The notes beneath the pieces were generated by a model. The model was given only the letters and a program-made list of their open reading frames with translations, was not told where the DNA came from and ran no database searches. A program made the position numbers and the translations under genes. From assembly GCA_965221595.1 (NCBI GenBank), contig OZ244900.1, forward strand, positions 1,190,687 to 1,254,686: 64,000 nucleotides of DNA. The letters are read 5' to 3'. This document shows positions 35,345-49,245 of this stretch, piece after piece. This DNA is from Vicinamibacterales bacterium (lineage in GTDB: Bacteria; Acidobacteriota; Vicinamibacteria; Vicinamibacterales; UBA8438). Every line of letters starts with the position of its first letter. The first letter of the stretch is position 1.

Positions 35345-36565
<1,221 letters not shown>

Positions 36566-36569
36566 GGCG

Positions 36570-37841
36570 TCACTCCGCGGCCAGGTAGGGGATGGTCTGC
36601 GGCCCCTCGGGCAGGGCGCACAGGCGCGCCGCCGGCCCGGCCCGATCGAGCTGCTCGCGCACGGTCGTCGCGACGTCGTCGACGGGGACGAGGTGCGCCG
36701 CACGCACCGCGTCGGGCGAGAGACCGTCGGCCTTGAGGAAGACCCGCGCGCGCTGCTGGATCTGCGCCTGGATCTGCACCTCCCACTGGTCGTGCCGGTT
36801 GTGGCCCGGCGCGCAGATCATCTCCAGCAGCGCCGCCGGCGAATCGCGTGCCGCGAGGATGTCGCCGTACTCGCCGTGCGCGGGCAGACCTTCCGCGCAC
36901 TCCGCCGCGCACACGATGGCGCCGCCCGGCTTGACGACCTGCGCTGCCGCCGAGAGCCCCTTGACGGTCTGGTACAGGTTCTGGTCGAGGGGATAGCCGC
37001 TGTTGGTGGTCACCACGACGTCGAACGGGGCCGCGAAGGCCTGCATGGCGCTCTGCTTCACGCGCGCGGCCAGGGTGCGGTGGACCGCGAAAATCTCGCC
37101 CGCGGCGACGCTCGTGATCCTCCGGTCGCGATTGATGGCGACATCCACGCTGAAGTGGACGCCGACGTGGGCGGCGATGCGCCGGATGGCCTCGTGGATG
37201 GGGTTGCCCTCGGTCACGCCCCACGTGGCGCGCGGGCTGGCGATCATCTCCGCGTCGTGGAGCCGCATGGTCGTCCGAAAGCCGGCCAGCCCGGGGGCCA
37301 CCAGCTTGGGACCGCCGCTGAAGCCGGCGAAGAAGTGCGGCTCGACGAAGCCGGTGGTGATGCGCACGTCGGCCTCCACCCAGAGCCGGTTGAGCCAGAC
37401 CGGCACGCGCGGCTCGACCTCGCCCAGGTAGACGAGATCCGCCTCGTCGAACGCACTGTGGTTCACCACGCGGTAGCGGTCGACGATGGGTGCGCCGAGC
37501 ATTTCGACCAGCTCGTCGCGATCATTGGCGCGGTGCGTGCCGGTGGCGATGAGGATGACGATGCGCTCGTCGGGCACGTGCGCCAGCTCGCCGAGCAGCA
37601 CCGGCAGCAGCGTGCGGCTGGGCATCGGCCGGGTGATGTCGCATACCGAGACGGCGACCGTCCGGCTGCTGTCGACCAGTGCGGCCAGCGGCGGCGAGCC
37701 CAGCGGCGCCCGCAGCGCCTGCCGGATGGCGGCGACCTCGTCCGGCAGGCCGGCGACGTAGGTGGGTTCGAGGACCGTGGTGCGGTCGTCGGGCAGGTCG
37801 ACCGGCAGCCGGCCCCGGCCGTACGCGAGCTGGACGTTCAC
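36570..37841 (-). CDS. LarA-like (DUF2088) nickel-pincer-dependent racemase/epimerase homologue
   Basis: 423 aa, GTG start. [40 protein letters not shown] and [18 protein letters not shown] match lactate-racemase-family blocks. Confidence 0.75.
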
Positions 37842-37860: not shown

Positions 37861-37889
37861 CTGAACCCCCACCGGCCGGCGGGGTTCAG
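37861..37889 (-). other. 9-bp perfect stem-loop overlapping the UGSC-A stop codon, in the 44-nt gap before the LarA-like start
   Basis: CTGAACCCC-(11 nt)-GGGGTTCAG. There is no U-tract after it on the mRNA strand, so it is not a classical terminator. Confidence 0.5.
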
Positions 37890-38449
37890 CCCGCGCCGCC
37901 TGTCAGCACGCGCCGGACGCCGGCCCCGGCCGCAACGGCGCGGGCGGCGATCTCATCGGCGCTCAGCGTGCTCAGCGGATGCGTGATGACGACCGGTTCG
38001 AGATCCTCCGCACCGAGCGCCGCCTGCTGGACGCGGGCCTCGCGCAGGAAGGCGTCCGTGACGATGACCGCCGTCGGGATCCCCCGCCCTTCCAGCGCGA
38101 CCGCGTCGTGCAGACTGCACGACGTGCAGGAGCCTCAATCGCCGATGGCCGTGACGACTGCGTCGGTCTCCGAGGCAATGCGGTCGAGCAGTTCGGACGA
38201 CGCCGGACGCGAGAAGCTCGACTTCGCGTAGACCCGGACGGCGTCGAACGTCAGGCCGGCTTGCAGCTCGCTGACGACCCGCCGCAGCAGCTTCGACGCG
38301 TTCCACTTCGTGTTGTCGAGGACGCCGAGGCGCAGGCCGTCCAGCGACGCCGGACGGGGTGCCAGGGCGCGCGGTTCGGCGCTGACCGTGCCCCGCGGGT
38401 CGTACACGATGCGTCCGTCCGGCAGGCGCCGCTCGCTCGCTCCCGGCAT
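37886..38449 (-). CDS. UGSC-motif selenoprotein A (in-frame TGA = Sec at 38135-38137)
   Basis: The track shows an ORF ending ...DAVVTAIGD at TGA 38135-38137. The same frame continues [55 protein letters not shown]... to TGA at 37886. ATG 38449 has GGAGG 7 nt upstream. The paralogue at 47746..48279 has its TGA at the identical aligned position, and a conserved hairpin begins 11 nt after the TGA. Confidence 0.75.
38105..38123 (-). promoter_or_regulatory. candidate bacterial SECIS hairpin for UGSC-A
   Basis: The mRNA reads UGA-11 nt-GUCGUGCA-GUC-UGCACGAC (8-bp stem, G/U-containing loop). The same architecture is present at the paralogous locus. Confidence 0.55.
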
Positions 38450-38552
38450 GGTCGTGCCTCCAGTCTGACGCAAGGCGGCGGCTCGGTGCAATGTCCGCGG
38501 TTTGCTGATACCCTGCCCCGGGGCGCCGGCCGGCGCGGGGGAGGGTTTCTCC

Positions 38553-39664
<1,112 letters not shown>

Positions 39665-39668
<4 letters not shown>

Positions 39669-39961
39669 TCCGCGTCGTGCTGCCGGCGCCGCTGTGCGCC
39701 CTGGCCCGCATCGAGCGCGAGGTGACGCTCCACATCCAGGGCGAGGTCACGCAGCGCGCCGTCATCGACGCCCTGGAGGCCGGCTACCCCGCACTGCGCG
39801 GCACCATCCGCGACTACGCGACGCAGCGCCGCCGCCCGTTCATCCGGTTCTTCGCCTGCGAGCAGGACCTGTCCCACGAGCAGCCCGACGCCCCCCTGCC
39901 GCCAGCCGTCGCCGCCGGCGTCGAGCCGTACCTCGTCGTTGGCGCAATGGCCGGCGGGTAG
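39665..39961 (+). CDS. MoaD/ThiS-like ubiquitin-fold protein ending in Gly-Gly
   Basis: 98 aa, [48 protein letters not shown]...[11 protein letters not shown]-stop. ATGA start/stop overlap with the BNR gene. Confidence 0.6.
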
Positions 39962-40150
39962 CACCGGGAACGGAGCCCGAGGCTCGTCTGCGGGTCACAG
40001 CTCGCAGGTGGTGTCCGTGCCGACGTTGTCGGCCCTCCCGCCAGAGCTGGACCCTCAAGGGTTGCGAATGCACGCAAACCAGCGGGACCGGGCCCAGGCA
40101 TGCACAAGCACACCGCCCGGACAGTTACCTCCGCGCTCGATGGTTCGCGT

Positions 40151-42127
40151 CTACCCGCCCCGTCGGCGCCACAGGACGCTGACGGCCCAGTCGACATCGA
40201 GCCGCTCGCCCCGCCCGGCCGGCGTCGCCGTGTGCGGGCCCAGCCGGATGCCCGCACGCCCGAGCCGCGCCGTCACCTTTGCCAGCGGTGCGCCGGTCAC
40301 GGTCGGCGACGCAGGCGCCTCCGGCAGCGGCTGGCCGTCCGGCCGGACGAAGTGCGCCTCGCCGTCGTCGCCGAGCGTGACCCCGAAGCCTTCTTCGTGC
40401 ACGGCGCGGTGGTGCCGCCGGCACAGGAGCACCAGGTTGTCGAGCGCCGTCGCCCCGCCGTGCGCCCAATGGCGGATGTGGTGACCATCGCAGCGAGTGG
40501 CGGTGCACCCGGGGAAGCGGCAGTGCCGGTCGCGGGCGGCCAGCGCGCGGCGTAGCGCCGGCGAGAGGGTGCGCGTCCGGCGGCCGACACTGAGGATCTG
40601 GCCGCCCGGCCCGTGGTGCAGGGTGACCTTGGCGGCGTCGCAGGCCAGCCGCCGGGCCGTCTCGGCGGAGACGCGGATGCCGCCGGCCTCGTCGAGTGCG
40701 GACTGGCCGCGGGTTGCGGCAGCAGGCGCGGCGGCGGGCGGCTCTGTTGCCGGCACGCCCGTGCATGGTATGGCGTGATGGGTTGTGGGCCTCGCCGTCG
40801 CCGGCTGCGGCGCGTCGAGGCACGCCGGGTTAAGGGTTTGCGTGGTGGCCGACGCTGTCCCCGCCCTGCCCAAGCGAAGTGCGGTGGGGCTGGACGCGGG
40901 CCTCGCCAGCGTTGGCGGCGCGGCGTCGGAGCGCAGCGGGGCAGCGGCTTGCCCGGCAGGCGAGGCCGTCTCGTCGGCGGCCTTGTCCGCGCCCGCGCTG
41001 CACCGCCTGTACGTTCCCGCGGGAACGTACGGCGCCGGTGCCGCAGCTCCGCCGTTCGTGGTCAATGCCGCCTCGTCTTCGTCCTGACCGTTGCGGTCGC
41101 TCGGACACGGCGACGTCCGAATATCGAGTTGGCCGCCTGCCCTGGCGCCCGCGTTGCCGGTACCTTCGCTCGAACGCGGCGGGGTCCGAGTATCGAGTCC
41201 GTCGCTTGCCGTGGTGCCCGTGTCGCCGGGTCCATCGCTCGGACATGGCTCCGTCGCGGCCGCCTCGGGCCGGTCGGCGTCGTCGGCAGTCAGGGTGTCG
41301 GCGTCCACGTGGACGACCGCCTGGTAGCGGTCACCGGCCGTGCCCTTGTCGAGGCCGCCGGCCAGCGCGCACTCGGCCACGGTGCCCAGCGCGTCGGCCC
41401 GCCGCTGCGAGACGCTCGGCGCCATGCCATCTGCGGTGTCCGCGGCGGCCCCGTCTGCATCCACCGGGCTCGGCGCCGCGTCCAGGGCGGCGTCGAGCGC
41501 CCGGCGCAGCACGGCGCCCACCTCGGGCGCCAGCCGGCCGCGGACCACGACCATCCCGTCGTCGTCCACCCAGGTGTCGAGGGCGCGCGAGTCGTGCCGC
41601 TGCCGGTCGTCTGCTGCCTCGGCTGCGCGGTCGACCTGCCGCCAGGAGCGGACGACCTGCTCGACGTGGGCTGCGGTGCCGGCGAGGGCGAGGTCGAGCA
41701 GGGCCTGCTCGGTCTCGGGGGTGGCCACGCGGGTGACGGCTCGTACCTTCGAGTAGGAGACCTGGCCGCGCTGCATGGCGGCGCTCAGGAGCGGCAGGTT
41801 GGCGAGGGCGCGCGCCACGCGGACGTGCTCGCGGGCCGGTCCGGGTGCGAGTCCGATGCGCCAGCTCAGCCAGTGGGCGCAGGAGGCGAAGCCTTCCCAG
41901 GCGGCACGCTCGTCGAACTGGCGGATGAGGACGAGCAGCTCGTAGGTGGCGGCCTGGATGCAGGCGGCGGCCTCGGCGATGCGGTTGCCGAGGGCTTCGT
42001 TGCTCGGCTCGGGCTCGTCGCCCGGCACGGGTGACAGAAGCGCCGGCCCGGGCGGGCTTGTCGCGGTGGCTACCGGGACCGGCAGGGGGGACGACGAGGT
42101 GGGAACGGGGCTGGCAGCAGCAGGCAT
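40151..42127 (-). CDS. DUF222-HNH endonuclease (13E12-repeat-family type selfish-element protein)
   Basis: The N-terminus (LGNRIAEAAACIQAATYELLVLIRQFDERAAWEGFASCAHWLSWRIGL) is the DUF222 pattern. C-terminal HNH: RHCRFPGCTATRCDGHHIRHWAHGGATALDNLVLLCRRHHRAVHE. A low-complexity tandem-repeat insert lies in between. Confidence 0.85.
   Translation of the reverse strand: MPAAASPVPTSSSPLPVPVATATSPPGPALLSPVPGDEPEPSNEALGNRIAEAAACIQAATYELLVLIRQFDERAAWEGFASCAHWLSWRIGLAPGPAREHVRVARALANLPLLSAAMQRGQVSYSKVRAVTRVATPETEQALLDLALAGTAAHVEQVVRSWRQVDRAAEAADDRQRHDSRALDTWVDDDGMVVVRGRLAPEVGAVLRRALDAALDAAPSPVDADGAAADTADGMAPSVSQRRADALGTVAECALAGGLDKGTAGDRYQAVVHVDADTLTADDADRPEAAATEPCPSDGPGDTGTTASDGLDTRTPPRSSEGTGNAGARAGGQLDIRTSPCPSDRNGQDEDEAALTTNGGAAAPAPYVPAGTYRRCSAGADKAADETASPAGQAAAPLRSDAAPPTLARPASSPTALRLGRAGTASATTQTLNPACLDAPQPATARPTTHHAIPCTGVPATEPPAAAPAAATRGQSALDEAGGIRVSAETARRLACDAAKVTLHHGPGGQILSVGRRTRTLSPALRRALAARDRHCRFPGCTATRCDGHHIRHWAHGGATALDNLVLLCRRHHRAVHEEGFGVTLGDDGEAHFVRPDGQPLPEAPASPTVTGAPLAKVTARLGRAGIRLGPHTATPAGRGERLDVDWAVSVLWRRRGG
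41097..41255 (-). repeat. 69-bp coding tandem repeat (about 2.3 units) inside the HNH gene
   Basis: tcgctcggacacggcgacgtccgaatatcgagt... / tcgctcgaacgcggcggggtccgagtatcgagt... / tcgctcggacatgg... They encode the PCPSD...LD(I/T)RT(S/P) units. Confidence 0.8.
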
Positions 42128-42515
42128 ACGTCCATTGTATGCCCCGTTTTCTTAACCGCTTGCACGGCTCCAGGACACCCGATCGGGCCGCGTGGCAGCG
42201 TCGCGCCCTCCCCGGCCGGCGAACGACCGCCAGCGCGCCGTCAGGGCGCTCGAAGGGGCATGTCTGACACGGGTTCGACCGCGGCGCGACGTGCTTCACG
42301 GAAGGCTGTCAAGCAAAAAATGCACGGACGACAGAAAAAGTGACGCCTGCCGTCCCTCCGGCAAGGCGGCATCCAGCATCCGCTGGGACGCGGTGCTCGA
42401 CCTGCCGCTTGATGGCCGGTGGGTAGGAACTGAAACGGAACTCGAGGCTCGTCCGAGCGTATGATGGTCATGCTAGCCCGAAGGGCCGCATTGTCTCCGA
42501 CTGAAGGAGCCGAAG

Positions 42516-44096
42516 ATGCACAGCTCGATTCGCGCAACTGCCGTTTGGTTCGCGGCGCTCAACGTCGCCGGCGCCGGACTGCTGGCACAGGACGGAGGGG
42601 CTACTCGATCCGAAACCGCTGAAGCGGCCGGAACAGAGCAAACGGAGCGCCCGGTCGAGGGGCGCCAAGCTGCCGGGCAGGATGACGTGGCGCGGGACGC
42701 CCGCCTCGACGAGGCTCGAGCCCGGCTCGCTCGGGCGTTGTTGTTGCGCCAGCAAGCCGAACAGGGTGACGCTGCCTCGCAGTTCACGCTTGGACTGCAG
42801 CACCTCACTGGCAACGGTGCCATTGAAGACACCGCGGAAGCCGTCCGCTGGTTCCGTCTGGCCGCCGAGCAAGGCTATGCGGAGGCGCAGGCTGCCCTTG
42901 GGGTCATGTACCTCGATGGTCGAGGAATTGCAGCAGACTCCGACGAAGCCCTGCATTGGTTGCGCCTCGCCGCCGAGCAAGGTGTCGCAACGGCGCAGAA
43001 CGCCGTCGGGTGGATGTACTTCGCCGGATCGGGTGTCCCAAGAGACGCTGCGGAAGCCGCGCGCTGGTACCGCCTCGCCGCTGACCAGGGCTCTGCCGAC
43101 GCGCAGTCGCACCTCGGAATGGCGTACAGCTCGGGGCACGGGGTGCCGCAGGACATCGGGGAGGCCGCGCGCTGGTACCGCCTCGCCGCTGAGCAAGGCC
43201 TCGCGGATGCGCAGTACGCCCTGGGCGACCGGTACTCCGAGGGCCGCGGCGTGCCACAAGACAAAGAGGAGGCTGTGCGCTGGTACCGCTTGGCGGCCGA
43301 ACAGGGTAATGCTGCGGCACAGTATTCCCTCGGACTGATGTACGCCAGCGGCCAGGGTCTCATCGAGGACGCTGCGGAAGCGGCACGCTGGTACCGCTTG
43401 GCGGCCGCGCAAGACGATGATCTCCTCCCGTCCTTTCCGTACGTATTCCTCGCCCGGTTCGGCCTCGCAGTTATGTACGCCAATGGACGTGGCGTCCTTG
43501 AGGACGTCACGGAAGCGCTGCGCTGGTACCGCTTGGCGGTCGCCGACGACCGGCACGAACTGGTTCCCTTTGGATTCTGGCCTGACAAGCTGAACGACAC
43601 TGCGGAGGCCGTGCGTTGGTACCGCTTCGCGGCCGAGCAAGGCCAAGCCTATGGGCAACTGCGCCTCGGGTACATGTACGCCAGAGGCGCTGAAGGTGTC
43701 CCGAGAGACGCCGCGGAAGCCGTGCGGTGGTACCGACTTGCTGCCGAGCAGGGTGACGCGGGGGCGCAGAATAATCTAGGGGCCATGTACGCCAGAGGTG
43801 ACGAAGGTGTTCTCAAGGACGCCGGGGAGGCCGTGCATTGGTACCGTTTGGCGGCCGAGCAGGGCCACGCGGCGGCGCAGTACAACCTCGGCGCCATGTA
43901 CGCCGACGGCTCGGGCGTCCTCAAGGACGCCGTGCTTGCGCATATGTGGTTCAATATCGCCGGCGCGAATGGGTGGGACGACGCACCGGACGCTCGGGAC
44001 AGATTGGAACGTGACATGGCCCTTGCGGACATCAGCCGCGCGACCGAACTAGCCCGAGCCTGCATGGCCTCGGACTACCGGGACTGCGCGCCGTAA
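42516..44096 (+). CDS. Sel1-repeat (SLR) protein, exported
   Basis: AAGGAG upstream and a signal peptide. About 11 units of xEAVRWYRLAAEQGxAxAQxxLGxMYxxGxGVxxD. Confidence 0.9.
   Translation: MHSSIRATAVWFAALNVAGAGLLAQDGGATRSETAEAAGTEQTERPVEGRQAAGQDDVARDARLDEARARLARALLLRQQAEQGDAASQFTLGLQHLTGNGAIEDTAEAVRWFRLAAEQGYAEAQAALGVMYLDGRGIAADSDEALHWLRLAAEQGVATAQNAVGWMYFAGSGVPRDAAEAARWYRLAADQGSADAQSHLGMAYSSGHGVPQDIGEAARWYRLAAEQGLADAQYALGDRYSEGRGVPQDKEEAVRWYRLAAEQGNAAAQYSLGLMYASGQGLIEDAAEAARWYRLAAAQDDDLLPSFPYVFLARFGLAVMYANGRGVLEDVTEALRWYRLAVADDRHELVPFGFWPDKLNDTAEAVRWYRFAAEQGQAYGQLRLGYMYARGAEGVPRDAAEAVRWYRLAAEQGDAGAQNNLGAMYARGDEGVLKDAGEAVHWYRLAAEQGHAAAQYNLGAMYADGSGVLKDAVLAHMWFNIAGANGWDDAPDARDRLERDMALADISRATELARACMASDYRDCAP
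42777..43980 (+). repeat. 108-bp-period Sel1 coding repeats
   Basis: The string gcgctggtaccgc(c/t)t(c/g)gc(c/g)gc recurs at about 108-bp spacing (for example near 43063, 43168, 43276, 43384). Two central units are degenerate. Confidence 0.75.
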
Positions 44097-44130
44097 TCCA
44101 GGGCGCGCTCACCGCCGCACTCCGCCCCCC

Positions 44131-45243
44131 TCACAGCTCGCACGTGCCGTCCGTGCACGCACTGTCTCCGCTCGCCGGAGGGCGGCCGTCGATGGCGCGG
44201 AGGACGGGGGACGTCATGTGGCCCCAGCCGGGCAGGAAGGCGGAGAAGCGGCCGGCTTCGCCGCCGGCGACGAAGAGGTGGATGTCGTCGGGGGCGGGGA
44301 CGACGGGGATGCGGGCGCCCGGCTCGCGGCGGTACCAGCGCGGGAGGTTGCGGTTGTAGACCTTGCCGTAGCGTCCGCCGAAGCTGACCGCGTCCCAGCG
44401 GTTGCCGGCATTCGACCAGAGGTAGCGGCGTACGTCCTGCCGCGTCCAGTGCTGCGCGGCGATGGTGGCCGCGTGCTCGGGGCCGAGGACGACAGCGCAC
44501 GAGCCGCTGCTGACGGCGTTGTTGTGGGCGATGGTGCTCATGGCCGAGGCGATGCTGTCGAGGATGCCCTGCGGGTCGTTGGCCACGTGGTTGGTGACGC
44601 TGTGCGGTCCCTCGGCTGCGATGCAGAACACGGTGCTGTCGTCGGGGCGGTAGCCCTGCTCGACGTGGTACGGCGCCCAGGGGCTGGCCTCCTCGTTCTC
44701 GGCGATGCAGAACGTGTACTTGCCGGGGTGGCCCAGCGTGCTCTTGTCGAGGTCCCCCGGCCAGGCGCCGCCGACGTTGAGCAGCACGAGACGGATCGCG
44801 CGGCCGATGGTGGCGTTGGCCCGGCAGCCGGAGCCGAAGACGTTGGCGCCGGCATTGAGCCCGAGTGCTCCCCGGACGGGGCCGTTCACCACCAGCAGCG
44901 GGGCGGCCATGTGGGTGGTGGCCTGCACGCCGTGCAGGTTGAAGTGGCTGCTCGTGAGCGCCAGCAGCGCGGCGCGGACGAGCGGTGCGTACTCCGGCCG
45001 GCAGCCGGCGAGCACCAGGTTGACCGCGAGCACCTCGCGCGTGAGGTTGCCCCAGCGCGGCGGGATGCGGGCCTCGAGGTGATCGGGGCGGCCGCCGAGC
45101 GCGTCGACCATCGCGGCGACCGACGCCGGCGTGGGCGGCACGACAGGCAGGCCGTCCGTCCAACCCTGCTCGAAGTAGTGCTCGATCAGGTCTGCGGGAT
45201 CGCCACGCGAGGCGCTGCCGGTGTCCGGGTCAGATGCGGGCAT
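44131..45243 (-). CDS. uncharacterised conserved protein ('GLPVVPPTP / AGCRPEY' family), paralogue of the C-terminal domain of 57834..59483
   Basis: 370 aa. Shares TDGLPVVPPTPA, LAGCRPEY, FNLHGVQATT, VNGPVR, GLNAGANVFG, RANATIGRA, NVGGAWPGDLDKSTLGHPGK and PYHVEQG blocks with the other copy. I recognise no named family. Confidence 0.65.
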   Translation of the reverse strand: MPASDPDTGSASRGDPADLIEHYFEQGWTDGLPVVPPTPASVAAMVDALGGRPDHLEARIPPRWGNLTREVLAVNLVLAGCRPEYAPLVRAALLALTSSHFNLHGVQATTHMAAPLLVVNGPVRGALGLNAGANVFGSGCRANATIGRAIRLVLLNVGGAWPGDLDKSTLGHPGKYTFCIAENEEASPWAPYHVEQGYRPDDSTVFCIAAEGPHSVTNHVANDPQGILDSIASAMSTIAHNNAVSSGSCAVVLGPEHAATIAAQHWTRQDVRRYLWSNAGNRWDAVSFGGRYGKVYNRNLPRWYRREPGARIPVVPAPDDIHLFVAGGEAGRFSAFLPGWGHMTSPVLRAIDGRPPASGDSACTDGTCEL

Positions 45244-45589
45244 CCTGCGTGACGCGGTGGATGGGGCCGAGCGCTTTCACGACTGCGGACGCGTTGGACC
45301 CCAGCAGGACCCCGTCGCCGAGGACCAGTGCGCCGGTGAAGCAGGAGCGGTTCGCAAAGCGCACCTGCACGGGGCCGACGTACGGGACGGAGACGTGCCG
45401 GCCCTCGGCCTTGGTCACTTCCCGCTTCTCCAGCTCGGACAGATCGAGCTGCACGGCCACATGCCGGGGGATGCACTGCGTCATCGCCCCCGTGTCGACG
45501 AGCGCCGTGACGCGCAGCGGGTTCAGCGCCGGGTCGCGTGGATTCGACAACGCGACGGTGGTGTGCAGCCGCTCACGCGCCGACATCAC
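45230..45589 (-). CDS. retropepsin-like (clan AA) aspartyl protease domain protein
   Basis: 119 aa with the LVDTGAM active-site motif and a later ALVLGDGVLLG flap/dimer-type block. Overlaps both neighbours by 14-17 nt. Confidence 0.6.
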   Translation of the reverse strand: MMSARERLHTTVALSNPRDPALNPLRVTALVDTGAMTQCIPRHVAVQLDLSELEKREVTKAEGRHVSVPYVGPVQVRFANRSCFTGALVLGDGVLLGSNASAVVKALGPIHRVTQDARI

Positions 45590-47681
45590 CGAATCCCTTG
45601 CCCTGCGCGGCGAGGCGCGCGAGGAGCGGTGCGGGCGCGAGCCGCTCGCCGTGCTCGTCGGCGAGGCGGCTCAGCGCCTCGTGGATGGTCCGCAGGCCCA
45701 CCCGGTCGGCCCAGAACATGGGCCCGCCGCGGTAGCGCGGGAAGCCGTAGCCGTGCATCCAGACGACATCGATGTCGCCGGCGCGCAGCGCGATGCCCTC
45801 GTCGAGGACCTTCGCGCCCTCGTTGACGAGCGGGTAGAGGCAGCGCGGGACGATCTCGTCGTCGCTGACCGCGCGGCGCTCGATGCCGGCCTCCGCCGCC
45901 GCGCTGACGATGAGCTCCTCGACGAGCGGGTCGGGGACCGGCGTGCGGCTGCCCGGCTCGTAGCGGTACCACCCGGCGCCGGTCTTCTGTCCGAAGCGCC
46001 CGCGCTCGCAGATGCGGTCCGCCACCGGGGAGTAGCGCAGATCGGCCGGCCGCGTGGCCGCCTGGCGCTGGCGGATGAACCAGCTGACGTCGTTGCCGGC
46101 CAGGTCCGACATCTGGAACGGTCCCATCGGCAGGCCGAACTCGTAGAGGACCCGGTCGACCTGCTGCGGCAGCGCTCCCTCCTCGAGGAGGAACTCCGCC
46201 TCGCGCAGGTAGGGCGCCAGCAGCCGGTTGCCGACGAAGCCGTCACAGACGCCGACGAGGACGCCCACCTTGCCGAGCCGCCTGGCGAGCTGCATGACCG
46301 TGGCGATGGTGCGCGCCGAGCTGCGCCGGCCGCGCACGTTCTCCATCAGCCGCATGACGTTGGCCGGGCTGAAGAAGTGCGTTCCGATCACCGCCTCGGG
46401 CCGCGCGGTGACTGCGGCGATCGCGTCGACGTCCAGCGTCGACGTGTTCGTGGCCAGCACCGCGTCGGGCTTGCACACGGCGTCGAGGCGGCGGAATACA
46501 TCCTGCTTCAGGTCCATCCGCTCGAAGACCGCCTCGACCACGATGTCGGCGCCGCGCACGTCCGCGTAGTCCGCGCTGCGCGCGATGCGCCCCAGCCGCG
46601 CGTCCATTTCCGCCTGCGCGAGCCGGCCCTTCGACACCGTGGCCGCGTAGTTCTGCGCGACGACGGCGAGCCCCTTGTCGAGCGCCTCGTCCGAGACGTC
46701 GACCACCGTCACCGGGATGCCGGCGTTGGCGAACGTCATGGCGATGCCGCCGCCCATCGTCCCGCAGCCGATGACCGCCGCGCGCTCGATGGGCAGCGCC
46801 GGCGTCTCGCGCGGAACGTCCGGGATCTTGGCGGCCTCGCGCTCCGCGAAGAAGGCGTGCCGCTGCGCCCGCGACTGGTCCGAGGTGCGCAGCCGCTCGA
46901 AGATGCGCCGCTCCGCGGCCATGCCCTCCCCGAACGGTAGCGACACGGCGTTCTCGACCGACTCGACGCAGGCGTACGGGGCGTCGAAGCCGCGCGCGCG
47001 CCGGGCCATCCTGCGGCGGTACGCGGCGAAGAGCCCGGGTTGTGCGCGGGCCTCGGCAACCCGCTCCACGAGCAGCGAGGCACGGCGCAGCGGCGCGCGC
47101 TCGCCGGCGAGCTGCCGGGCGCGCGCGACGGCGGCCGCCAGCAGGTCGCCGTCCACGACCTCGTCGACGATGCCCAGCGCCAGCGCCCGCTCGGCCGGCA
47201 GGAGCTGGCCGCCGACGATGACGTCGAGAGCTGCCTCCACGCCGATCAGCCGCGGCAGGCGCTGGGTGCCGCCCGCGCCCGGCACGATGCCCAGGGTCAC
47301 TTCCGGCAGGCCGAGCCGGGTGCCCGCCGCGGCGAAACGGACGTGGCAGGCCAGCGCCACCTCGAGCCCGCCGCCCGCGGCCACGCCGTGAATGGCCGCG
47401 ACCACCGGCTTGCGCGAGGCTTCCAGCTCGGCGAGCACCGCGGGCAGCGACGCCGCGCCGGGCGGCGGCGGGGCGTCGAACTCGCGGATGTCGGCGCCGG
47501 CGCAGAACAGGCGGCCGGCGCCTGCAACGACGAGGGCCGCCACGCCGTCGTCAGCCAGCGCCTCCATGACCCGGTCGCCCAGCGCGGCGCGCATGGCGAA
47601 GCTCAGGCCGTTGACCGGGGAGTTCGTCAGGCGCAGCAGCGCGACATCGTCATGGCGTTCCAACTCGACGGAGCCCGGCAT
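45573..47681 (-). CDS. bifunctional enoyl-CoA hydratase / 3-hydroxyacyl-CoA dehydrogenase (FadB/FadJ-like)
   Basis: 702 aa. N-terminal crotonase part (FCAGADIREF, AAIHGVAAGGGLEVALAC), then the 3HCDH Rossmann part (AAVIGCGTMGGGIAMTFA) and a C-terminal 3HCDH_C domain. Confidence 0.9.
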   Translation of the reverse strand: MPGSVELERHDDVALLRLTNSPVNGLSFAMRAALGDRVMEALADDGVAALVVAGAGRLFCAGADIREFDAPPPPGAASLPAVLAELEASRKPVVAAIHGVAAGGGLEVALACHVRFAAAGTRLGLPEVTLGIVPGAGGTQRLPRLIGVEAALDVIVGGQLLPAERALALGIVDEVVDGDLLAAAVARARQLAGERAPLRRASLLVERVAEARAQPGLFAAYRRRMARRARGFDAPYACVESVENAVSLPFGEGMAAERRIFERLRTSDQSRAQRHAFFAEREAAKIPDVPRETPALPIERAAVIGCGTMGGGIAMTFANAGIPVTVVDVSDEALDKGLAVVAQNYAATVSKGRLAQAEMDARLGRIARSADYADVRGADIVVEAVFERMDLKQDVFRRLDAVCKPDAVLATNTSTLDVDAIAAVTARPEAVIGTHFFSPANVMRLMENVRGRRSSARTIATVMQLARRLGKVGVLVGVCDGFVGNRLLAPYLREAEFLLEEGALPQQVDRVLYEFGLPMGPFQMSDLAGNDVSWFIRQRQAATRPADLRYSPVADRICERGRFGQKTGAGWYRYEPGSRTPVPDPLVEELIVSAAAEAGIERRAVSDDEIVPRCLYPLVNEGAKVLDEGIALRAGDIDVVWMHGYGFPRYRGGPMFWADRVGLRTIHEALSRLADEHGERLAPAPLLARLAAQGKGFGDVGA

Positions 47682-47745: not shown

Positions 47746-48279
47746 TCAGTGGGTGATCGCGTCCAGGATCGCGTCGAGCGCCGCGCGGGCCTTCGCGCGC
47801 ATCTCTTCGTCCGTGGCGTCCTGAATCGGATGCGGCACGTAGACGGCGCGGCTGGCGACGCCCGGCATCCCGAGCGCCGCGGACTGCCGCTCGGCCGCGC
47901 CGACGAATTCCGACGAGGCCACCATCACGGTCGGGATGCCCTGCGCCTCGTAGTCGACCAGGTCGTGCACACTGCACGACGTGCACGACCCTCAATCGGC
48001 GAGCGCCTGGATGACGACCCGGCAGCGCTCGGCCACCTCCGCGCGCAGGTCGGGCGGCGCCGGCTTGGTGAAGGTCGGCTTGCGCAGGCGCACGATCTCG
48101 ACGCCGGGCAGCCGGCCGGCCAGCAGGCGCTCGAGCTCGTCGCAGAACACGTCGCCGCGCGGCTTCGAGATGTCGACGATCCCCAGCGGACCGCCGATCC
48201 CGCCCGCCCGCGCGGCAAGCGGCCTGCGGATTGGCTCGCGCTCGTCCGTCGGGTCGAGGATGACCATCGAGTCCGGCAT
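47746..48279 (-). CDS. UGSC-motif selenoprotein B (in-frame TGA = Sec at 47992-47994)
   Basis: The ORF 47992..48279 ends ...RVVIQALAD at TGA. The same frame continues GSCTSCSVHDLVDYEAQGIPTVMVASSEFVGAAERQSAALGMPG...HPIQD... to the stop at 47746 (the track lists that part as a separate ORF, 47746..47970). ATG 48279 has GGGGGA 6 nt upstream. Confidence 0.75.
47962..47980 (-). promoter_or_regulatory. candidate bacterial SECIS hairpin for UGSC-B
   Basis: The mRNA reads UGA-11 nt-GUCGUGCA-GUG-UGCACGAC. An alternative 9-bp stem is GUCGUGCAC/GUGCACGAC with a 10-nt loop. Confidence 0.55.
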
Positions 48280-48312: not shown

Positions 48313-49245
48313 CTACTGGAAGTCCGCGCCCGTCATCAACTTGAGGTTGCGGCCGTTCCCCTCGTGGCAGGCGTACTCGTACAGGATGTGATCGGCCGGC
48401 GCCCGTTTCAGCCCTTCGTAGCGCAGTGTCCAGGGCTGCGTGAATACGTTCGGATCCTCGATGGTGGCTTGGTAGTTGATCGTGTTCGCGTCCACCGGGA
48501 TGAAGCGCTCCACCACGCGCAGTGCGCCGCTGTGGAAGATGCCGTGCCCGCTGTTGATCGAACTGGCCGGCGCGCCCTCGGGCGGCGCCCCGTGCCCCAC
48601 GGGCCACGTATTGTCGGTGAAGTTCGTCACCTCCACCACCAGCGTGTCGCCCTCCCAGCGGCCCCGCGAGTCGCCCATCCCGAGCCGGATGCCCGCCGGC
48701 AGGTGCGGGCGCCCGTCGAGCGGGATGTACCGCGAGTGGTGGTTCCACTCGTAGAGGATGATGACCGCGCCCGGCACCTGCAGGATCTGGTAGGTGTTGT
48801 AGCCCACCGGCAGGTGTGCGCGCGGCAGCGCGGCGGGCAGGCACTTGACGCGCGGGTCGAGAAACGCCAGCTCGTCCTGCCGGTCCATGATCTCTTCGCG
48901 CCGTTCGGCGGCCCATTCCTGCAGGGGCACGCGGCCGTCGGGCGGGTCGATGATCATCGGCGTCCGCACGCGCTCGCGCGGGCCCGCCGGCGCCTCGCCG
49001 TCGGGGCGGAAGAAGCGCGTGAAGGTGTAGTTGTGGCCCGTGTACTGCGTGTCGCCCCACGGTTCCAGCCGCGGCGTCTCCAGCGGCTGCGACGCCCCCG
49101 GCAGGTAGTGCCCGCGCAGGTCGGGGTCGCCCCACGGCGTGCGGGGCGGCGTGTAGTCGCTCTCTTGCGCGGCGAGCGGGGCCGGGGACGCGAGGGTTGC
49201 GCACAGCGCCAGCGCGGCGAGCGGTACGAGCGGCTGTCTGGTCAC
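48313..49245 (-). CDS. conserved exported hypothetical protein, paralogue of 16793..17752
   Basis: Signal peptide MTRQPLVPLAALALCATLASPAPLAAQ. Shared blocks: TPWGDPDLRG, IIDPPDGRVPL, IPLDGRPH, GDSRGRWEGDTLVVEVTN, YEYACHEGN. Confidence 0.65.
   Translation of the reverse strand: MTRQPLVPLAALALCATLASPAPLAAQESDYTPPRTPWGDPDLRGHYLPGASQPLETPRLEPWGDTQYTGHNYTFTRFFRPDGEAPAGPRERVRTPMIIDPPDGRVPLQEWAAERREEIMDRQDELAFLDPRVKCLPAALPRAHLPVGYNTYQILQVPGAVIILYEWNHHSRYIPLDGRPHLPAGIRLGMGDSRGRWEGDTLVVEVTNFTDNTWPVGHGAPPEGAPASSINSGHGIFHSGALRVVERFIPVDANTINYQATIEDPNVFTQPWTLRYEGLKRAPADHILYEYACHEGNGRNLKLMTGADFQ

Follow-up and report, generated by a model that had tools for sequence, protein, structure and literature searches.

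Two genes in a 64,000-nucleotide (nt) stretch of contig OZ244900.1 from a Vicinamibacterales bacterium (hereafter the window, to which all coordinates refer) are each interrupted by one in-frame TGA, and comparison with their homologues indicates that the UGA almost certainly encodes selenocysteine (Sec, U) in both. The two genes, here called copy A and copy B, are ordinary members of the UGSC family, a known selenoprotein family, and the finding itself is not novel; what is new is the pairing of UGSC with a conserved 370-residue protein (unk370), together with the analysis of UGSC fusions and replacements. The best explanation overall, to which a probability of roughly 0.8 is assigned, is that both genes specify complete UGSC selenoproteins, with Sec insertion directed by a selenocysteine insertion sequence (SECIS) and with a role as redox partner of unk370.

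Two UGSC genes with an in-frame UGA

Copy A (37886..38449, minus strand) has 187 codons, with its ATG at 38449, a terminal TGA at 37886, and the presumed Sec codon, number 105, at 38135..38137 (minus strand); copy B (47746..48279, minus strand) has 177 codons, with its ATG at 48279 and the in-frame UGA, codon 96, at 47992..47994 (minus strand). On minus-strand translation, this single internal TGA is the sole break in each frame. The initial annotation had described a gene split by an in-frame TGA at 38135-38137; the coordinates and the junction were right, and the strand proved to be the minus, a plus-strand reading of the same positions having been rejected as giving a meaningless translation. 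It had also pointed to a second gene at 47746..48279 with a TGA at the same aligned residue and with the same flanks, and this held, both junctions reading D-[TGA]-G-S-C-T-S-C-S-x-H-D (in copy B, VVIQALAD*GSCTSCSVHDLVDYEAQGIPT). The two proteins are paralogues with 33% identity. A GGAGG ribosome-binding site lies 7 nt before the ATG of copy A, and copy B has a Shine-Dalgarno-like GGGGGA sequence; scans for promoters and terminators around copy A found nothing.

The whole window was scanned for in-frame TGAs with at least 50 stop-free codons on each side and a G+C content at third codon positions (GC3) above 0.85, and exactly two sites were obtained, namely the two UGSC TGAs. The window has a G+C content of 71%, and TGA is the normal stop of 12 of its 28 long, high-GC3 open reading frames (ORFs), as well as the terminal stop of both UGSC genes; the code is therefore not reassigned genome-wide. 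Within the same 28 ORFs, TAG (16) is used more often than TGA (12) and TAA is absent (0), which is unusual for a genome of 71% G+C. Automatic gene callers break both genes at the TGA; the annotation should instead run as one frame through this codon, with each product named as a selenoprotein.

With U read as C for profile scoring, both proteins exceeded the curated cut-off (125 bits) of the NCBIfam model NF041046, ‘UGSC family (seleno)protein’, at 147.7 bits for copy A and 155.9 bits for copy B, and both likewise exceeded the cut-off (25 bits) of Pfam PF24696 (UGSC), at 197.1 and 148.9 bits, respectively; the profile check thus confirmed the earlier assignment to a UGSC-motif selenoprotein. 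The U/C-G-S-C motif stands at a conserved column in both copies and aligns with D-C-G-S-C of full-length homologues. The family is the ‘UGSC-containing protein’ of the Global Ocean Sampling selenoproteome (Zhang and Gladyshev, 2008; PMC2398784) and ranks with the most abundant of the selenoprotein families predicted from aquatic metagenomes; since its description it has gone without an assigned function (PMC2398784; PMC13188914), in agreement with what had been stated at the outset, and a 2026 review places it among the selenoproteins with largely uncharacterised functions (PMC13188914). Copies A and B share with the family the passed cut-offs, the U-G-S-C motif, the alternation of Sec and Cys, and a length of ∼180 residues; nothing essential differs, and the window lineage has two paralogues, A and B.

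The database proteins closest to copy A are 104-residue fragments that end at the TGA (P0001, 98% identity; P0082, 83% identity), whereas full-length homologues recovered by protein search at 50-60% identity carry Cys at the aligned column. A scan with one genome per species assigned the window to Vicinamibacterales (Acidobacteriota). Its 80 best loci, 4 metagenome loci, and the window together supplied a sample of 112 UGSC genes closest to copy A, all of which (112/112) keep TGA at this column; they derive from Vicinamibacterales, Nitrospinota, Chloroflexota, Entotheonella, some Alphaproteobacteria, and others. B-type genes with TGA were found in 27 related loci. A second scan with Cys forms yielded 80 proteobacterial loci, and each of these has a Cys codon at the same position (TGC in 73, TGT in 7), so that the Cys orthologues expected at the Sec column were indeed present. 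The homologue P0003 has Trp written at this column (AIGDWGSC), most likely because a gene caller translated TGA as Trp.

The sequence beyond the TGA is conserved as protein. No stop was present in the 45 codons examined after the TGA in the 112 sequences; these orthologues thus do not merely end at the TGA, but all keep it together with an open, conserved downstream frame. Relative to the window copy, the ratio of nonsynonymous to synonymous substitution (dN/dS) was 0.20 (A) and 0.15 (B) downstream of the TGA and 0.38 (A) and 0.21 (B) upstream of it, and the downstream codons are, by these ratios, under purifying selection. The segment GSCTSC, directly after the TGA, has a dN of 0 and precedes every potential restart codon, so that its conservation cannot be accounted for by termination and subsequent re-initiation. 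That the TGAs are ordinary stops, leaving pseudogenes or two separate short polypeptides (the gene callers split the genes into 104 + 60 and 95 + 74 residues, and TGA serves as an ordinary stop for other genes of the window), is exceedingly improbable in view of the TGA at one column in 112/112 loci of several phyla, the unchanged GSCTSC upstream of any restart codon, the stop-free downstream frame under purifying selection, and the Cys homologues, which are single polypeptides.

The downstream hairpin and the selenocysteine machinery

A SECIS-type hairpin follows the UGA in both copies, at 38104..38124 (minus strand) in copy A (CGUCGUGCA-GUC-UGCACGACG, nt 14-34 from the U of UGA) and at 47961..47981 (minus strand) in copy B (GUCGUGCA-GUG-UGCACGAC). 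The form common to both, (C)GUCGUGCA-GUN-UGCACGAC(G), begins 11-13 nt after the UGA and falls inside the codons for C-T-S-C-S-x-H-D. Over this stretch, the two copies are nearly identical in DNA although the proteins are only 33% identical, and synonymous divergence (dS) in the first 12 codons after the UGA is 0.26 in A and 0.12 in B, vs. 0.82 and 0.62 further on. Of 70 sequences, 69 have TCG at Ser codon 6 of the stem, whereas Ser codon 3, which falls outside the core stem, is free to vary among them (TCC 35, TCG 28, TCA 5, TCT 2); codon 8 is AGT (60) or TGT (10), its third base being always U despite a GC3 of ∼90%. The mean minimum free energy of the hairpin is -13.9 kcal/mol in 70 unique Sec forms, compared with -7.0 kcal/mol in 76 unique Cys forms. 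Among 60 unique 42-mers, pairs 16-32, 17-31, 19-29, 20-28, and 21-27 are invariant, pair 18-30 is GC in 56, GU in 3, and AU in 1, and the loop is always G23 U24 N25 (60/60), with the stem starting at nt 14-16. The hairpin is judged to be under constraint at the RNA level, mainly from these frozen synonymous sites, covariation being sparse.

For comparison, the Escherichia coli fdhF SECIS was used, after a check against 5,420 E. coli records that gave 100% identity to fdhF. Both elements are hairpins located within the coding sequence soon after the UGA, and both have G23 and U24 in the apical loop; with the U of UGA as nt 1, copy A and fdhF agree at every position of nt 23-30 (GUCUGCAC) and nt 35-40. 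The loop has 3 nt in copies A and B, vs. 4 nt in fdhF, and the stem is perfect here, wanting the bulged U17 of the fdhF SECIS; G23 and U24 are presumably the nucleotides contacted by SelB in fdhF. In the mechanism proposed, the in-frame UGA would be read as Sec during translation of both genes, and the hairpin, with G23/U24 in its loop, would act as a bacterial SECIS for SelB and Sec-tRNA(Sec).

The hairpin also coincides with a difference between the two protein forms. The sequence is UGSCTSC[S/C]xHD in Sec forms and CGSC[C/T]S[A/C/G]CxRD in Cys forms (codons 5-10 after the U/C column), such that the third Cys is displaced by one position and His (CAC, paired in the hairpin) stands in place of Arg (CGC). 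From this displacement and the hairpin-paired His codon, it follows that the SECIS may be shaping the UGSC protein sequence.

The Sec synthase gene selA was sought with a G+C-biased back-translation of the SelA motif GDKLLGGPQAG, and the scan was repeated with a Vicinamibacterales SelA found first. SelA was confirmed in four loci of relatives (TIGR00474, 515-538 bits, cut-off 268), and at least 17 related Vicinamibacterales assemblies with the UGSC TGA gene, matched by accession, also carry selA. These include CBDAUL01 (loci L007/L296), in which copy A is 83% identical to that of the window, CBDCCO01 (L010/L298), and OZ242279 (L024/L285). In three relatives, the neighbours of selA are purH and genes for a PQQ dehydrogenase, an asparagine synthase, and a histidine kinase, with no adjacent SelB; tRNA-Sec was not found in 40 UGSC loci or in 80 selA loci.

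Readthrough of the UGA in which a near-cognate or suppressor tRNA inserts a standard amino acid (Trp, Cys, or Gly) would be compatible with the fact that the Sec machinery of the window genome was not seen, only the 64 kb being readable, and with the W of P0003 (probably, again, the gene caller's rendering of TGA). However, homologues have Cys in this column, a pattern characteristic of Sec; the distance of the hairpin from the UGA and its G23/U24 loop are those of a SelB-dependent SECIS; at least 17 related genomes with the TGA gene also encode SelA; and the family is a recognised selenoprotein family (PMC2398784). Readthrough of this kind is thus considered very unlikely.

The UGSC protein and its proposed 370-residue partner

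An AlphaFold2 model of a Cys-form homologue (mean predicted local distance difference test, pLDDT, 88.5) consists of five consecutive beta-alpha units, with the U/C residue where strand 3 gives way to helix 3. The best structural matches in the Protein Data Bank (PDB) were lumazine synthase, flavodoxin, and FMN reductase, all of them weak (template modelling, TM, score ≤0.5), and no meaningful match to UGSC was obtained by PDB sequence search. The fold is thus predicted to be flavodoxin-like, as opposed to the ‘likely Trx-like fold’ of the literature, for which the redox role was left unspecified (PMC2398784). A thioredoxin (Trx) fold was considered and rejected, as no thioredoxin-fold protein was present in the top 50 PDB matches and no Trx-type Pfam match was found. 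On the model, the product would be a small alpha/beta protein with Sec-Gly-Ser-Cys at a junction from beta strand to helix.

Homology to GrdB/PrdB is likewise not supported by Pfam: none of 117 family members matches PF07355 (GRDB) at E ≤ 5, and the only GrdF signal joins copy B residues 93-162 to GrdF positions 347-409 with an E value of 0.009 and 14.7 bits, vs. an NCBIfam cut-off of 800. GrdB, GrdF, and PrdB, of the glycine, sarcosine, betaine, and D-proline reductases (PF07355), resemble UGSC in having a UxxC motif and in being a selenoprotein subunit or partner of a second catalytic protein; however, UGSC is much shorter, and unk370 is unrelated to the pyruvoyl proteins GrdE and PrdA. The resemblance is a lead only.

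The proposed catalytic partner, unk370, is encoded at 44131..45243 (minus strand) and belongs to no named family, with no Pfam, NCBIfam, or PDB sequence match. In 153 of 160 loci (77/80 Sec, 76/80 Cys), its gene immediately precedes that of UGSC in the same orientation. Identity to unk370 is 73-88% among the 120 best of >7,800 homologues and ∼65% between phyla, making it far more conserved than UGSC, and a profile search of 1.84 billion representatives recovered 5,791 representative clusters of relatives. Cys81 is invariant across the superfamily (140/144), and the C363-x4-C368 pair, in a C-terminal tail of the form CxDGxCxL, is kept in 64/65 and 64/64 of the UGSC-adjoining orthologues; the unk370 model has a pLDDT of 79. 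In locus L004 (2465-3581), from the closest relative, the unk370 gene is apparently split into ORFs of 246 and 136 residues, probably by an assembly frameshift, the contig having ∼3.6x coverage.

Fusions were surveyed in the 67 unk370 relatives of at least 400 residues among the top 150. UGSC is fused to 42 of the 67, in both orders, several being cut at the Sec codon or starting after it; the other fusions comprise five to AhpC-TSA/Redoxin, two to FeThRed_B (the catalytic chain of ferredoxin-thioredoxin reductase, FTR), and one to Pyr_redox_2, such that every domain identified on these long relatives is a thiol/disulfide redox module. No in-frame unk370-UGSC fusion was present in the 164 fetched loci, fusions being found only in the wider superfamily, and long open frames in those loci were rejected as fusions, being chance products of high G+C. 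A fusion of UGSC to an unnamed domain, ‘Unknown_1’, was already noted in 2008 (PMC2398784), and such a fusion is seen again here; ‘Unknown_1’ is likely unk370.

Adjacency, together with the fusions to and replacements by redox modules, suggests that UGSC is most likely a dedicated selenol/thiol redox partner of unk370, a role regarded as probable from gene order and domain architecture. UGSC is like dedicated redoxin partners in being a small protein with a U/CxxC motif that opens a helix and in being encoded next to, or fused with, a larger enzyme, and unk370 is like the reductases served by redoxins in its C-terminal Cys-x4-Cys tail and invariant internal Cys; thioredoxin or NrdH, for example, serves ribonucleotide reductase, which has a C-terminal Cys pair. 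UGSC differs from these partners in its fold and is without sequence relationship to them. Electrons would pass from a disulfide reductase or other reductant to the U-x-x-C of UGSC, from there to the C-x4-C tail of unk370, and then by way of Cys81 to the substrate.

More tentatively, and at somewhat less than even odds, UGSC and unk370 may constitute a widespread two-component selenol/thiol-dependent enzyme acting on a di/tricarboxylic or hydroxy acid and feeding CoA-dependent catabolism. In such an enzyme, Cys81 would be recycled by UGSC or, elsewhere, by a fused peroxiredoxin-like, FTR-like, or flavoprotein disulfide reductase module. If true, this would represent a new redox enzyme class and a function for an environmentally abundant selenoprotein family; the near-obligate pairing with unk370, the fusions in both orders, and the replacement by other redox modules make the function of UGSC open to direct experiment.

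Several points weigh against the explanation of the two genes as SECIS-directed selenoproteins partnering unk370. No tRNA of any kind, and hence no tRNA-Sec, was found in the window; in relatives, a search confined to the surroundings of selA recovered no SelB, SelD, or tRNA-Sec. The hairpin stem is nearly invariant, with few true compensatory changes (an AU at pair 18-30, a further change at pair 15-33), and no Rfam match was obtained for the whole window at gathering thresholds or around the TGA at E ≤ 10. The evidence for the partner role consists entirely of gene order and domain fusions, and, in the window itself, copy A lies ∼5.7 kb from unk370, while copy B lacks an unk370 gene of its own. 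The U/C-x-x-C-x-x-C cluster could alternatively be a metal site, and the best Foldseek match of unk370 is 5l2r, a class I fumarate hydratase (E 4.4e-5, probability 0.97), weak at a TM-score of 0.24 and a root-mean-square deviation of 17 Å.

The last two points would fit a metal or iron-sulfur centre bound by U/C-x-x-C-x-x-C, with UGSC as the metallo-subunit of a two-subunit enzyme, comparable to the small subunit of a class I hydro-lyase. The three closely spaced Cys/Sec residues are conserved, the fumarate hydratase matched by unk370 is a 4Fe-4S enzyme, and UGSC and unk370 total ∼555 residues, near the size of a single-chain class I fumarase; however, the low TM-score, the lack of any Fumerase Pfam match even at E ≤ 5, and the displacement of the third Cys by one residue between Sec and Cys forms all argue against it. 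The domains that replace UGSC are, moreover, all thiol/disulfide redox modules (AhpC-TSA, Redoxin, Pyr_redox_2), with FeThRed_B having a 4Fe-4S cluster in addition. A metallo-subunit is on balance unlikely, and a similarly low probability attaches to UGSC as a general free-standing thiol/selenol oxidoreductase, antioxidant or Trx-like, beside which unk370 would lie without meaning. The fold and the unspecified redox role given in the literature (PMC2398784) would agree with such an oxidoreductase, as would the positions of the window copies, A away from unk370 and B beside other genes, but adjacency in 153/160 loci that range from Acidobacteriota to Proteobacteria, the occurrence of both orders among 42 natural fusions, the replacement of UGSC by other redox domains in relatives, and a predicted fold that is flavodoxin-like rather than thioredoxin-like all speak for a dedicated partner of unk370.

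Gene neighbourhood

Directly downstream of copy A lies a homologue of the LarA-type nickel-pincer 2-hydroxyacid racemases (36570..37841, minus strand; NF033504, 501.5 bits, cut-off 460), followed in the same direction by an acyl-CoA dehydrogenase gene (35345..36565, minus strand). Of the 80 Sec loci, 60-63 contain a member of the LarA family, in 41 cases immediately downstream of an A-type gene. The LarA homologue passes the lactate racemase equivalog cut-off; larB, larC, and larE went unnoticed among the annotated neighbours, no search having been aimed at them. Copy B is flanked directly downstream by a FadB/FadJ-like enoyl-CoA hydratase / 3-hydroxyacyl-CoA dehydrogenase gene (45573..47681, minus strand) and directly upstream by a gene for a 310-residue protein without a family match (48313..49245, minus strand), whose hydrophobic N-terminus looks like a signal peptide by eye. 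A small ORF resembling clan AA aspartic proteases (45230-45589, minus strand; TIGR03698, 63.2 bits, cut-off 57.35) overlaps the ends of the FadB-like and unk370 genes. The same arrangement around copy B and the same position of the protease-like ORF are conserved in two related loci, L001 and L002, where the order is 310-residue protein, UGSC-B, FadB-like enzyme, clan AA protease-like ORF, unk370, UGSC-A, LarA, and acyl-CoA dehydrogenase, and where unk370 is ∼460 nt from copy A.

More widely, the neighbours in Vicinamibacterales comprise a LarA-type racemase, acyl-CoA dehydrogenase, MaoC dehydratase, FadB-like enzyme, and DASS-type carboxylate transporter, and those in Proteobacteria a LysR regulator, CaiB-type CoA-transferase, and Bug/TctC binding protein (by eye from cluster representatives). 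The nearby di/tricarboxylate transporters, CoA-transferase, LarA, and beta-oxidation-type enzymes therefore weakly suggest that the substrate may be a carboxylic or hydroxy acid. In the Achromobacter Cys-form loci (L095-L117), also inspected by eye, 15 loci have a thioredoxin-reductase-like gene ∼2.6 kb downstream of UGSC, and 11 others have a glutathione S-transferase gene directly after UGSC.

The ∼5.7-kb stretch that separates unk370 from copy A in the window (38450..44130) looks like an insertion, unk370 and UGSC-A adjoining in most relatives. It holds a BNR/Sortilin-like gene (38553-39668, plus strand), a 98-residue ORF (39665-39961, plus strand) that overlaps the BNR gene stop and ends in Gly-Gly, a DUF222-HNH endonuclease gene (40151-42127, minus strand), and a gene for a nine-repeat Sel1 protein (42516-44096, plus strand). 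The 98-residue ORF resembles a ThiS/MoaD-type sulfur-carrier protein by eye, with no Pfam or NCBIfam match at E ≤ 0.01. In L004, unk370 and UGSC-A are likewise separated by ∼5.7 kb, and the intervening DNA carries the same DUF222-HNH, 98-residue, and BNR genes plus two unannotated ORFs.

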